A DNA stretch of 64,000 nucleotides from Candidatus Dormiibacterota bacterium (lineage in GTDB: Bacteria; Chloroflexota; Dormibacteria; Aeolococcales; Aeolococcaceae), in contig DASYKI010000016.1 of NCBI GenBank assembly GCA_035995545.1, forward strand, positions 664,599 through 728,598. Direction: 5' to 3'. Below, piece after piece: positions 12,410 to 15,822 of the stretch (position 1 is the first letter of the stretch; every line of letters starts with the position of its first letter). The notes beneath the pieces were generated by a model, which searched no databases, had not been told where the DNA came from, and saw nothing but the letters and a program-made list of their open reading frames with translations. The translations under genes and the position numbers were made by a program.

Positions 12410-13092
12410 TCAGGTCGCCGTGGACCCGTCGTTGGCTCGCCCTGCTTGCTGGCGGACCAGATAGACGGCAGCCTCCGTACGCCGCGACAGGCCAAGCTTG
12501 GCAAGAACGTTGGAGACGTAGTTCTTCACCGTCTTCTCGGCGAGGTGGATGCGTTCGCCGATCTGTCGATTCGTGAGTCCCTCGGCGACCAGTTCGAGAA
12601 TGCGCCGTTCCTGCGGAGTCAGGTGCTCGGGTCCCGCGACCTCGATGGGCTCCTCGCCGCGGATGCGGGCGAGGACGCGCTCGGTGACCGCGCCGTCGAG
12701 CAGCGACTCTCCCCTCGCTACCTTCTTGATTGCCTCTATCAGCTCGGGCCCCTGGATCTGCTTGAGGACGTATCCCGAGGCACCGGCCATGATCGACGTG
12801 AACAAGGCCTCGTCGTCCGCGAACGACGTGAGCATGAGGACGCGGGTGTCGGGATGCGCGGACCGGATGTCGCGGCAAGCCTCGATCCCTGACCGTCCCG
12901 GCATGCGCACATCCATGACCACGACGTCAGGGGCCTGCTCATCAGCCAGCACCACGGCCTCGTCGGCTGTGCCGGCCTCGCCCACAACCACCATCGTGGG
13001 CTGGGTCTCCAGGAGCGCGCGGAGGCCACGCCGCACGAGATCGTGGTCGTCGCAGAGAAGGACCCGGGTTGAACCGGTCGGCTCGTCCATGC
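12410..13092 (-). CDS. two-component response regulator, NarL/LuxR family (DevR/DosR-like)
   Basis: Receiver domain (RVLLCDDHDLVRRGLRALL.., phospho-acceptor in VVVMDVRMPG, LTSFADDE, K in GASGYVLK) followed by a LuxR HTH (LTPQERRILELVAEGLTNRQIGERIHLAEKTVKNYVSNVLAKLG). Start at ATG ~13092 (MDEPTGSTRV). Confidence 0.8.
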
Positions 13093-13198
13093 CCGCAGTG
13101 TACGGGCTGCCGCCGGAGCCGACCAGGGTCCTTCGGTCCAGGGGCACAGGTGCCCATGGTCTCTAGCCGGAGGGTGGGAGAGGGCGAAAGCTGGTCCC

Positions 13199-13687
13199 AT
13201 GGCGTTCGTCCAAGACTTCCTCGACGTGGCGATGGGATTCGACGCGGCCGTGGCCGAGCTGGTCGACGTGGGCTGGCTGACGCTGCTCGCGGAGGAGGGC
13301 GTTCGCAGCGGCGAGGACCTTCGCCTCCGACTGGTGCCGCGGGACAGCGCGATCCCCCTGCCCAGCAAGCGCGTGCGCGTTGATCTGGAGCAGCCGTACC
13401 GGCGGGGCGACGCCTGGGTGCTGCCGTTCCACTGGTCGGCGACTGCACTGCCGGCGTTGTTTCCGGCGATGGAGGCAGAGCTGAGCGTCGCGCCGTTGGG
13501 CGAATCCGAGGTGCGACTCACCTTCAGCGGTCGCTACCGGCCTCCGCTTGGTGGCGTCGGGCAGATCGTCGACACGGTGCTGCTGCACCGTGTCGTGGAG
13601 CGCAGCGTTCGGGGCTTCCTGCATGCGCTGGGTGACGGTTTGGAACGGCGGGCAGCCACTCGACCCGGTTTCGTCAGCTCCGCATGA
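13199..13687 (+). CDS. hypothetical protein
   Basis: 162-aa ORF with balanced, protein-like composition and high GC3, divergent from the response regulator; no family recognised. Confidence 0.4.
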
Positions 13688-14850
13688 GCCGGGTCATCGG
13701 GTCGACCGCCGGGAAGGGCACCCGCCACTCGACACTGGTTCCACGGCCCTCGGCGGGTTGAACGACGACGGTGCCGCCCAACTCGCGGGCGCGTGCAGCG
13801 ATGTTCCCCAGCCCGTTCCCCCTGTGGTGATTGCTGGCGATCCCCTTGCCGTTGTCGACGACCCGCAGCACCAGGTCGGCATTGGCGGTCAGGTAGACAT
13901 CGACGGCGGATGCACCGGCATGGCGTGCGACGTTGGAGAGGATCTCGCGCAGCGTGGCATGAAGATGGGCGATCAACGTCGGTGGCAGGGCCGCGTCGAC
14001 GGGTCCCTCGAAGTGCACGAGTGGCTCGAAGCCCAGGGACCCCCGCGCTTCCGCGGCGAGGGCCAGGGTCAGGACTCGGAGGCTGCGCTCGCCCAGTTCG
14101 TACGCATTGAGCGCGAAGATGGCGCCACGAATGTCCCGAACTGTGTCGTCGAGATCCGCCACCGCCTGGTGAAGGCCGGAGGCCATGTGGGCATCGGCGG
14201 TGGCTCGGGACTCCAGGATCTGCAGCCCCAGGCCGGTTGCGAAGAGTCGCTGCAGCACGACGTCATGGAGGTCCCGTGCAATGCGTTCGCGCTCCTCCAC
14301 GACGGCCAGCTCCTGCACGCGCTCGAGGAGACGCGCATTGTCGATGGCGACGGCCGCGGCGCTGGCCAGCGCGACGGCGAGGTCCTCGTCCTCCTTGCTG
14401 AACTCGTCCGCATGACGCTTCTCCGTGAGATACAGATTGCCGAACACCGTGTCACGGATGCGGATGGGAACGCCGAGGAACGAGTGCATCGGCGGATGGT
14501 TCGGTGGAAAGCCCCACGACTGGGGATGGTCGGCGAGGTTGGGGATGCGGCGCGGCTGGGGGTCGGTGATGAGCAGGCCGAGGATGCCGCGGCCTTCGGG
14601 ATAGGGCCCGATGCGCTTGATGGTCTCCTCGTCGGCGCCGACGGTGATGAACTCCACCAGTCCCGGCCCCAGCCCGTCCGCCCCGGGGCCGATCACTCCC
14701 AGCGCCCCGTAGCGCGCGTCGACCAGTTCGCACGCGGCGGCGATGATGCGGCGGAGGACGAGGGGGAGGCTGAGGTCCGAGGAGATCGCCACCACCGCGT
14801 CGAGCAAGCGCTGGACCGGCCCTTCGGTGGAACCCGCTGCCTCGCTCATT
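13674..14850 (-). CDS. GAF-domain sensor histidine kinase (HisKA_3 + HATPase_c), DevS/DosS-like but with a single GAF
   Basis: Contains a GAF segment ([45 protein letters not shown]), a HisKA_3 H-box ([25 protein letters not shown]) and HATPase N/G boxes ([32 protein letters not shown]). Start at [12 protein letters not shown] near 14850. Confidence 0.75.
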
Positions 14851-14907
14851 GGTGGACCGTAGCGCATCCACCGGGGCCCCGCGCCGGAGCGGTATGGCGG
14901 AACCCGG

Positions 14908-15822
14908 TCAGTGCAGCGGTCGGGTCGGTGGCGGCACGACGAGCACCGACGTGACGCCCTGGTGCACCACGCTGGTGGCGACACTGCCCAGCACCAGGCG
15001 GTGGGCCCGGCCACGACCGTGGGTGCCCATCGCCACCAGCACGGGTGCCGGCACGCCGCCGACCGCGGCCATGATGGCCCGCACGGGCTCGGCCAGCTCG
15101 AGGCGCGCCCGCACCGGCTTGGCGCCGCTCCGGGTTGCCACTCGCTCAGCGCGCTCGTGCAAGCGCGCGGTCAGGTTCACGACGGTGGTTCGGTAGGCGT
15201 CGGGTTCGAGGTCGACGAGATCGTCCGCATCGCGCCGAACGGCCTGGAGCAGCTCGACGCCCGCCCCCGTTGCCGCGGCGATCGAAGCGCCCAGCAGCGC
15301 CGCCCGGCTCGCCTCGTCGGATCCGTCGACGGCTGCAATCACCGTCTGTGGCGGCCAGCAGCCGGCTTCGCCATGCACCAGCAGCACGGGGCGCGTGGTG
15401 CGGTGGAGCAGCTCTTCCGACACGCTGCCGACGAAGAGGCGGCCCAGCGCACCCAGGCCGCGCCGCCCGGCGACGATGAGCTCGGCGTCGACGCGGTCGG
15501 CAATGTCGAGGATGGCATCGGCTGGTCGAGGATCCTCCACGAGGTGCTCGACCACCGTGCATCCTGCCTTCTCCGCGACGGCACGGGCGCCGGCGACAAC
15601 CTCGGTGGCCGCACCGCGGAGGTCGATCAGCGTGGTGTCCACCACCGCCATGCCGCCGCCGAAGCCGCCGTAGGCAGCCATCGCCGGCGGGACCTGCGTC
15701 CAGGTGTGGACGAGGTGAAGCGGTGTGTGCCAGGCGGCAGCCAGACTGGCCGCGACACGGGTGGCGACCATCGCCTTCTCCGAGCCGTCGGCGGCAAGGA
15801 CGATGCTGCGGGGCTGGGTCAT
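14908..15822 (-). CDS. universal stress protein with tandem UspA domains
   Basis: 304 aa with two UspA repeats ([12 protein letters not shown]..; [33 protein letters not shown]; second domain ending [20 protein letters not shown]). Positioned USP-HK-RR on the minus strand like an Rv3134c-devR-devS-type operon. Confidence 0.8.

Follow-up and report, generated by a model that had tools for sequence, protein, structure and literature searches.

A 64,000-nucleotide stretch of contig DASYKI010000016.1 from a Candidatus Dormiibacterota bacterium (hereafter the window, ∼71% G+C) encodes a universal stress protein (USP), a histidine kinase and a response regulator that we assign, with good confidence, to the DevS/DosT-DevR type of two-component system (equivalent to OsdK-OsdR). 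The system shares a 15.3-kb segment at a tRNA-Thr gene with some of the genes that it likely controls and, by analogy with the Mycobacterium and Streptomyces systems, its output is probably a persistence programme triggered by hypoxia, NO or CO. To our knowledge, DevS/DosT-DevR has been studied almost only in Mycobacterium, and little in Streptomyces, as a switch into non-replicating persistence. The Dormibacterota are a soil phylum, uncultured or barely cultured, and named for presumed dormancy. Literature searches returned no paper linking Dormibacter* with DosR, and none in which “single GAF domain” occurs together with DevS. An earlier note on this DNA, made by reading the sequence, had described the three genes on the minus strand as a DevR/DevS-like operon; Pfam bears out the strand and the domains assigned to each product, while the operon itself needs revision, as described below.

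Since the high G+C of the window yields many spurious open reading frames (ORFs), we ranked ORFs by codon-position G+C and then checked them against Pfam and public gene calls. This DNA is present in three independent public assemblies, and the kinase is 100% identical to a protein annotated in a “Candidatus Dormibacteraeota bacterium” metagenome-assembled genome. For comparison, we surveyed 80 loci around homologous kinase genes, taken from genome assemblies. Two of these are used repeatedly here: the orthologous locus L004 (ENA ERZ27253768 k141_262601), which has a kinase 84% identical to that of the window and the same gene order and predicted regulator-binding boxes, and L005, with a kinase of 78% identity.

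The kinase begins at an ATG at 14849 and the regulator at an ATG at 13090, the same starts being called in the public assemblies and in L004 (the earlier note had given 14850 and 13092, and its other coordinates hold). Pfam recognizes in the kinase a single GAF domain at residues ∼30–170 of 391 (GAF region ∼25–177), in agreement with the one GAF, instead of two, read in the earlier note, with HisKA_3 directly after it and HATPase_c beyond. The GAF domain matches the heme domain of DosT (PDB 2VZW) with an E value of 1.6e-47 and 61% identity, and GAF-A of DevS with an E value of ∼1e-43 and 52% identity. With residue numbering anchored on DevS His149, kinase His118 aligns to the proximal heme ligand (DevS His149/DosT His147), Tyr140 to the distal tyrosine (DevS Tyr171/DosT Tyr169), and Gly51 to DosT Gly85, the DevS counterpart of which is Glu87. 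The roles of DevS His149 and Tyr171, and of the Glu87/Gly85 gate, have been described (PMC4082495). Along with the phospho-acceptor His195, found within the RIARDLHD stretch of HisKA_3, His118 and Tyr140 are invariant among 13 homologues of 55–84% identity. The ATP-binding domain also matches those of DevS (PDB 3ZXO) and DosT (PDB 3ZXQ). Neither Pfam nor the sequence gives a transmembrane segment, a second GAF domain or a periplasmic nitrate-binding domain in the kinase, and its N-terminus leads straight into the GAF domain. The NCBIfam matches of the kinase core are to LiaS, NarX and MadS, all sub-threshold. Heme-pocket residues and overall similarity thus agree with the DevS-like character proposed in the earlier note.

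As these conserved residues suggest, the cytoplasmic kinase would bind heme b in its sole GAF domain through His118, with Tyr140 as the distal hydrogen-bond donor and with the Gly51 gate open, as in DosT. By comparison with DosT and DevS, O2 on the ferrous heme is predicted to hold the kinase off, and autophosphorylation at His195 to set in once O2 is lost or NO or CO is bound. In DevS, a second domain, GAF-B, lies between GAF-A and the helix of the dimerization and histidine phosphotransfer (DHp) domain, and sharpens ligand discrimination (PMC4082495). Because the window kinase lacks GAF-B, the C-terminal helix of its heme GAF domain continues directly into the DHp helix, and the heme GAF may therefore couple directly to the DHp.

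The regulator has full-length DevR (PDB 3C3W) as its best solved relative, with an E value of 4.8e-61 and 209 bits, compared with 9e-40 and 140 bits for NarL and 3e-41 and 144 bits for VraR. Regulator residues Asp14, Asp15, Asp60, Thr88 and Lys110 correspond to DevR Asp8, Asp9, Asp54, Thr82 and Lys104, and the recognition helix, Glu185–Ser193 (EKTVKNYVS), is identical to DevR Glu178–Ser186. Within this helix, Lys186, Lys189 and Asn190 correspond to the base-contacting Lys179, Lys182 and Asn183 of DevR. By score, phospho-site and DNA-contact residues, the regulator is therefore DevR-like, as the earlier note had proposed, and does not group with NarL, a grouping that would have refuted that proposal. 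No DevR-specific NCBIfam model was matched by the regulator; the matches to MadR (184 bits), NarL (176 bits) and MctR are all sub-threshold.

Pairing of the kinase with this regulator is supported by their association elsewhere. A DevR-like regulator gene adjoins the kinase gene in ∼60 of the 80 surveyed loci, mostly in divergent orientation, and at L005 (10001–11794) and L006 (47–1840) kinase and DevR-like regulator form one 597-aa protein with a 10-residue linker. The DNA of this fusion is identical across two independent samples, and the gene that lies between kinase and regulator in the window (orf162, of predicted SRPBCC fold) is absent there. In the proposed mechanism, the phosphoryl group would move from the kinase to Asp60 of the 226-aa regulator, and the phosphorylated regulator dimer would bind GGGAC-N4-GTCCC palindromes, as the identical recognition helix suggests for the sites located in silico.

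The strongest of these candidate sites are a tandem pair of boxes ahead of a membrane-protein gene, one a perfect palindrome core at 19630–19643 (GGGACGAAGGTCCC) and the other, at 19611–19624 (GGGAGGAAGGTCCC), carrying one mismatch. Their centres are 19 bp apart and they lie 112–132 bp upstream of the membrane-protein ATG. A pair this close appeared in 1 of 300 composition-matched shuffles, the position weight matrix (PWM) score was 23.5 against a null maximum of 17.4, and both boxes are kept at the same position in L004 and L005. Tandem boxes are a hallmark of DevR promoters, where they typically sit at −42.5 and −63.5 (PMC3177182). Across the 80 kinase loci, there are 62 occurrences of the refined palindrome GGGNCSWWSGNCCC, where 6.7 ± 2.2 would be expected, and many of them precede genes for PNPOx-family proteins, membrane proteins, regulators or kinases. 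The palindrome equals the Streptomyces OsdR consensus, AGGGCCGATCGGCCCT, of which targets such as AGGGACCTTCGGCCCC have been reported, and the predicted OsdR regulon includes USPs, Zn-dependent alcohol dehydrogenases (ADHs) and one PNPOx-family protein (PMC5069765).

A degenerate box, GGGTCCTTCGGTCC, precedes the regulator gene (13126–13139); it is the third-best PWM match in the window and is kept in L004 as CGGACCGAAGGTCCC. From its centre it is 42.5 bp to the regulator ATG and, in the other direction, 66.5 bp to the ATG of the SRPBCC gene, which is divergent from the regulator. Six nucleotides upstream of the regulator ATG is the −10-like hexamer TACACT. Because L004 has the same hexamer at the same spacing, the regulator mRNA may be leaderless, which would place the box over the −35 region. 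Boxes 24–44 bp before regulator starts recur in a dozen other loci, and the orf162 homologues in L004, L037 and L043 have a box 64–68 bp upstream.

The earlier note had called the three genes tightly spaced and read them as a single operon mirroring Rv3134c-devR-devS. The spacing is indeed tight between the USP and kinase genes (58 bp), but the kinase stop at 13674 is 583 bp from the regulator start, and the conserved orf162, on the opposite strand, splits one from the other. The order that was read, kinase before regulator, is correct. Three transcription units are best supported: (i) membrane protein, acetyltransferase-like gene, USP and kinase, behind the tandem boxes; (ii) regulator and PNPOx, with their own box and probably without a leader; and (iii) the divergent SRPBCC gene between the other two. 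The PNPOx gene starts 7 nt past the regulator stop and is probably co-transcribed with it. In this arrangement, the boxes at 19611–19643 would activate the run of membrane protein, PatA-like acetyltransferase gene (frameshifted here), tandem USP and kinase, and would thereby place the sensor under positive feedback. The weaker box, at about −42.5 of the apparently leaderless regulator-PNPOx unit, would serve autoregulation of the regulator and, given the 66.5 bp that separate this box from the SRPBCC ATG, co-induction of that gene.

The whole unit lies between tRNA-derived repeats. The last 50 nt of the tRNA-Thr(GGT) gene (11365–11414) recur at 26716–26765 as a direct repeat, identical at 50 of 50 positions, so that the bracketed segment described in the earlier note is real. 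The enclosed 15.3 kb (11415–26715) have a G+C content of 0.689, against 0.73 and 0.714 in the flanks, and a third-codon-position G+C (GC3) of 0.858 against 0.914 (Mann-Whitney p = 8e-4). By its layout, the repeat-bracketed segment appears to be the classical scar of integration at a tRNA gene, and its past horizontal acquisition is likely, while its present mobility is doubtful. Pfam found no integrase, recombinase or other mobility gene in the border ORFs (25651–26794 and 11714–12100), and the segment had no match in plasmid records. A scan of metagenome contigs for the empty site was uninformative, giving zero matches even for the attR junction itself, and a look-up of the left-flank protein returned island-bearing or truncated contigs only, with no empty site among them. 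In L004, the core module is found in a different neighbourhood without a tRNA gene. The “portable” module of the earlier note thus has support from the tRNA-derived repeats and the lower GC3.

The neighbouring genes that the earlier note had named on the segment (PNPOx-family, GNAT/acyl-CoA synthetase, Zn-ADH, CoA-binding, PAS-HD-GYP and membrane protein) were all recovered, and their coordinates are listed in the table. Across Dormibacteria, Acidimicrobiia and Actinomycetes, the kinases have PNPOx, GNAT/acyl-CoA-synthetase and ADH genes, the membrane-protein gene and orf162 as recurrent neighbours, a pattern expected of a locally clustered regulon. PNPOx homologues are found beside the kinase in many of the surveyed loci. 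The 209-aa membrane protein has 2565 homologues and no Pfam family, and homologues stand beside the kinase in 10 further loci; its predicted structure is all-helical with two transmembrane segments (pLDDT 83), and a fold search of it gave no informative match. In the tandem USP, both halves carry the G-x2-G-x9-G-S motif of the ATP-binding type, as read from the translation, and its PDB matches are generic, with a weak match to Rv2623 (3CIS/2JAX).

The 162-aa orf162 converges with the kinase gene and diverges from the regulator gene; with the former it shares 14 bp at the 3′ ends, in L004 as in the window. It is called in all public assemblies and is 73–75% identical in L004; 18 close homologues share its N-terminus and length, within a family of 1963 representative clusters. 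Elsewhere, its SRPBCC domain forms a C-terminal extension of a PAS-HisKA_3-HATPase kinase (P0332, 676 aa) and is also fused to an Rrf2-family regulator (P0352, 327 aa). These fusions hint, as a lead, that the SRPBCC domain may be a signalling accessory. A more far-reaching proposal is a transferable “gas-sensing persistence cassette”, complete in itself, in which the SRPBCC protein, as ligand-binding partner or kinase modulator, joins the minimal one-GAF heme kinase and the DevR-type regulator as a third signalling part. It derives from the convergent position that the SRPBCC gene keeps with this kinase type in distant lineages, its own box 64–68 bp upstream and the signalling fusions elsewhere, and we regard it as rather doubtful.

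The gene second in the co-directional run has PDB matches annotated as protein acetyltransferase (9IT0/9ISQ, 4NXY and 4AVA), including the GNAT domain of Streptomyces lividans PatA and Rv0998, although, judging by its best PDB and NCBIfam matches, the product may alternatively be a genuine acyl-CoA ligase of the ADP-forming kind. Compared with L004, it has lost 1 nt in a run of C at 18519–18520, and this deletion is shared by the three independent assemblies; the orthologous ATG is at 18728, and the reading frame that is left, of 845 aa, starts at an internal ATG (18498). A 910-aa GTG-initiated ORF (15961–18693) was considered as the acetyltransferase gene and rejected when alignment to L004 revealed the frameshift. 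AMP-forming acyl-CoA synthetases are the classical substrate class of PatA-type acetyltransferases. At the same place in L004, upstream of the boxes, is an intact 615-aa gene for such a synthetase, which in the window is a remnant in three frames. With the PatA-like gene frameshifted and the synthetase a remnant, this strain is losing the acyl-CoA/acetylation part of the module.

Table 1. Features of the DevS/DosT-DevR-type locus and of the tRNA-bounded segment, in window coordinates.
Feature	Position	Strand	Basis
tRNA-Thr(GGT); last 50 nt (11365–11414) = attL-like repeat copy	11340–11414	+	ARAGORN; Rfam 75.8 bits
PNPOx-family gene (Pyridox_ox_2), 139 aa	11983–12402	-	Pfam 4.9e-23; public gene call
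DevR/DosR/OsdR-type response regulator, 226 aa, REC + GerE/LuxR HTH	12410–13090	-	Pfam Response_reg + GerE
-10-like hexamer TACACT	13097–13102	-	Read from sequence
Degenerate DosR/OsdR-type box GGGTCCTTCGGTCC	13126–13139		PWM match
Predicted SRPBCC/START/Bet v 1-fold gene, 162 aa (orf162)	13199–13687	+	Coding G+C signature; public gene calls
One-GAF DosT/DevS-like histidine kinase, 391 aa, cytoplasmic	13674–14849	-	Pfam GAF + HisKA_3 + HATPase_c
Tandem USP, 304 aa	14908–15822	-	Pfam 7.6e-40, two Usp stretches
PatA-type gene, N-terminal GNAT + NDP-forming acyl-CoA-synthetase-like domains, frameshifted	15961–18728	-	Pfam; PDB matches
Two-transmembrane helical membrane protein, 209 aa	18876–19505	-	First gene behind tandem boxes
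Tandem DosR/OsdR-type boxes	19611–19643		Palindrome scan; PWM
AMP-forming acyl-CoA synthetase remnant	19727–20201	-	Residues 286–444, three frames
Zn-ADH	20303–21406	+	Pfam; gene call
Further segment cargo: CoA-binding protein, DUF4389 protein, two unknown proteins	within 20303–25613	+	Pfam; gene calls
PAS-PAS-HD-GYP	24201–25613	+	Pfam; gene call
Right 50-nt direct-repeat copy (attR-like)	26716–26765	+	Repeat search; marginal tRNA match 26686–26762

Several points weigh against assigning the locus to the DevS/DosT-DevR type with the regulon proposed here. We infer heme binding, ligand response, phosphotransfer, DNA binding and induction alike from sequence comparison. The kinase has no GAF-B, the domain that tunes ligand discrimination in DevS. 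The gaps in the four-gene co-directional run are 147–182, 138 and 58 bp, so that internal promoters are possible, and a scan of this run with sigma-70 and terminator consensus patterns detected no promoter or terminator; its second gene, the PatA-like one, is frameshifted in this strain. As for the boxes, the spacing of the tandem pair is 19 bp as against 21 bp in Mycobacterium tuberculosis, where the latter is reported to be necessary for helical phasing (PMC3177182), and the regulator box has two core mismatches. The simple pattern GGGACNNNNGTCCC, with at most one mismatch, is not over-represented in the window (5 occurrences against 6.5 expected) and is not enriched in the surveyed loci (139 against 155 expected). 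The 9-fold enrichment of GGGNCSWWSGNCCC is optimistic, since the motif was refined post hoc on those same loci. The weight given to the boxes as putative regulator sites thus comes from their tandem arrangement, their position, their conservation and the post hoc refined motif.

The kinase and regulator might instead form a generic NarL-family system, in which the GAF domain binds either no ligand or one other than heme, the targets of the regulator are nitrate genes or others, and the resemblance to DevS and DevR is at the level of the family only. Such a reading draws on the NCBIfam matches, which are sub-threshold for both proteins, and on a heme site that is predicted only, but we consider it highly improbable: the GAF domain is too close to the DosT heme domain, with the axial His and distal Tyr invariant; the match of the regulator to DevR exceeds that to NarL by 70 bits, and its recognition helix is identical to that of DevR; the conserved upstream sites of the neighbours are DosR/OsdR boxes and not NarL heptamers; and the kinase is without the transmembrane or periplasmic sensor of NarX. 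Within the DevS/DosT-DevR assignment, a separate question is whether USP, kinase and regulator could still be one transcript, produced by read-through over the antisense strand of the 162-aa gene, in which case the SRPBCC gene would be under transcriptional interference and would not act as a separator. The minus strand between 13674 and 13090 contains no predicted intrinsic terminator, the 14-bp convergent overlap leaves no room for one in either the window or L004, and kinase and regulator are fused in a close relative. Missing terminators say little, however, as high-GC bacteria often have no canonical ones. The conserved box of the regulator's own and the −10-like hexamer, spaced as for a leaderless mRNA, also speak against a single transcript, and L004 keeps both. 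Most other lineages transcribe regulator and kinase divergently, which means that co-transcription is no conserved requirement. We therefore hold the single transcript to be unlikely, though it is the alternative to be taken most seriously, and retain the three units described above.

It is also conceivable that the locus is a decaying relic, where the island is immobile, the regulon is being lost, and the sensor pair is poorly expressed or uncoupled in this strain. The absence of a detected integrase or mobility gene at either end, the reduction of the AMP-forming acyl-CoA synthetase to a three-frame remnant, and the PatA-like frameshift found in all three assemblies are what such decay would leave. 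Set against these, five genes (kinase, regulator, USP, SRPBCC and membrane protein) are intact and no catalytic residue is lost, the boxes are kept in L004 and L005, and the direct repeats have not diverged at any of their 50 positions. Decay of the system as a whole is accordingly quite improbable in our estimate, and a working DevS/DosT-DevR-type system remains the preferred reading.

Placed beside M. tuberculosis DevS(DosS)/DosT-DevR(DosR), the window system shares the heme-type GAF-A with its proximal His and distal Tyr, the Gly gate of DosT, the HisKA_3/HATPase core, the phospho-site residues and recognition helix of DevR, and tandem GGGAC-N4-GTCCC palindromes, with autoregulation predicted here. 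In both organisms a tandem USP (Rv3134c in M. tuberculosis) is encoded immediately upstream of the sensor genes. DevS and DosT, at 573–578 aa, contain both GAF-A and GAF-B, whereas the window kinase has one GAF in 391 aa; the mycobacterial order is USP-regulator-kinase, whereas here the regulator follows the kinase across the opposite-strand SRPBCC gene. The PknH site Thr205 of DevR is a Val in the window regulator, and the hosts are Actinomycetota in one case and Dormibacterota in the other. With Streptomyces coelicolor OsdK-OsdR (SCO0203/SCO0204), the window shares the high-GC box of the AGGGACCTTCGGCCCC type and a neighbourhood of the same kind as the OsdR regulon, in which USPs, Zn-dependent ADHs and the PNPOx SCO0214 have predicted OsdR sites. 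There, unlike in the window, osdR and osdK form one operon, and no membrane-protein, PatA-like or SRPBCC components have been described for the osd locus.

NarX/NarQ-NarL shares its HisKA_3 kinase class and its REC plus GerE regulator class with the window system, but relies on a transmembrane/periplasmic nitrate sensor and on NarL heptamers; the window lacks this sensor, its boxes are DosR-type and its regulator is nearer to DevR. The PatA-like gene shares its GNAT and NDP-forming acyl-CoA-synthetase-like body with PatA-type acetyltransferases (S. lividans PatA, enterobacterial PatZ/Pat and M. tuberculosis Rv0998) and differs from them by the frameshift, its activity being putative; in L004 an AMP-forming acyl-CoA synthetase is directly upstream of it. 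Like other tRNA-integrated islands, the segment has a perfect 50-nt duplication of a tRNA 3′ end around 15.3 kb of deviating composition, but no integrase or excisionase was detected in its border ORFs. Overall, the locus differs from the known system in its single GAF, its gene order, its extra conserved partners, its phylum and its island context.

The one-GAF architecture is not peculiar to the window, and kinases of this type are abundant in Dormibacteria and Acidimicrobiia. The best 120 database relatives of the kinase have one GAF and are 362–416 aa long, except for a 597-aa fusion and one 608-aa protein, and come mostly from metagenomes of Dormibacteria and Acidimicrobiia; some carry the automatic annotation “DevS”. 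In a rough midpoint-rooted neighbor-joining tree of 71 kinases, calculated without support values, the two-GAF kinases (510–554 aa; loci L060–L085) form one clade nested among the one-GAF kinases (L007–L059), with a 524-aa protein (L079) as the single outlier among the latter. This nesting hints that the one-GAF form is older and more widespread, and the two-GAF architecture may be derived. The fuller claim, with one GAF ancestral and DevS/DosT a derived actinomycete branch, is as doubtful as the cassette proposed above.

Other features of the region can be noted in their own right. In the stretch from the tandem boxes to the membrane-protein ATG, a short direct repeat (CTAGGGCG ... CTAGGGCG) spans 19580–19605, and after it comes a leader block, GATGnAnnCGTGGTC..ACGGCCAC, that is strongly conserved; L004 and L005 have both; an Rfam search of 11000–27500 gave only the tRNA and a pseudo-tRNA, and no riboswitch in this leader. 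Candidate boxes before the PAS-HD-GYP gene (24104–24143, 24 bp apart and 57–90 bp upstream) were rejected, being half-sites only with none upstream of the L004 HD-GYP gene, and a weak match at 20224–20237 before the ADH gene was not counted as a box. At 1005–1018 of L004, a DosR-type box, GGGACCTTGGTCTC, precedes by ∼45 bp a gene for 81 aa, the first in a run of Pyr_redox_2-DsrC-DsrE-acyl-CoA-synthetase genes, which suggests a sulfur-relay/redox extension of the regulon in this relative. The L004 module (proteins P0002 and P0144) is labelled “Candidatus Angelobacter sp.” (Acidobacteriota) by NCBI, on a contig that is Dormibacteria-like with 69% G+C; either the label is a binning or naming error, or the module has been transferred between phyla. 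A second tRNA-Thr gene, with anticodon TGT, is located at 1935–2006; the tRNA-Thr(GGT) of the island follows 9.3 kb to its right. At 27763–27812, a 16-nt unit (GCAATGGCTGAGTTGC-like) occurs three times in tandem, just upstream of the 708-aa gene at 27798 and overlapping its start.

The locus overturns nothing in the current understanding of DevS/DosT-DevR signalling. It indicates that the sensor chemistry, the regulator and the DNA box are conserved outside the Actinomycetota, in Dormibacterota, along with a similar regulon flavour of USP, PNPOx and ADH. As the whole unit lies between tRNA-derived repeats, such regulons may move as blocks. The 391-aa one-GAF kinase would be a natural minimal system in which to study the role of GAF-B and direct signalling from a heme GAF to the DHp. 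The membrane protein and the SRPBCC protein, which recur with the system across phyla, are candidate uncharacterised members of the regulon and may be relevant to its mycobacterial relatives.

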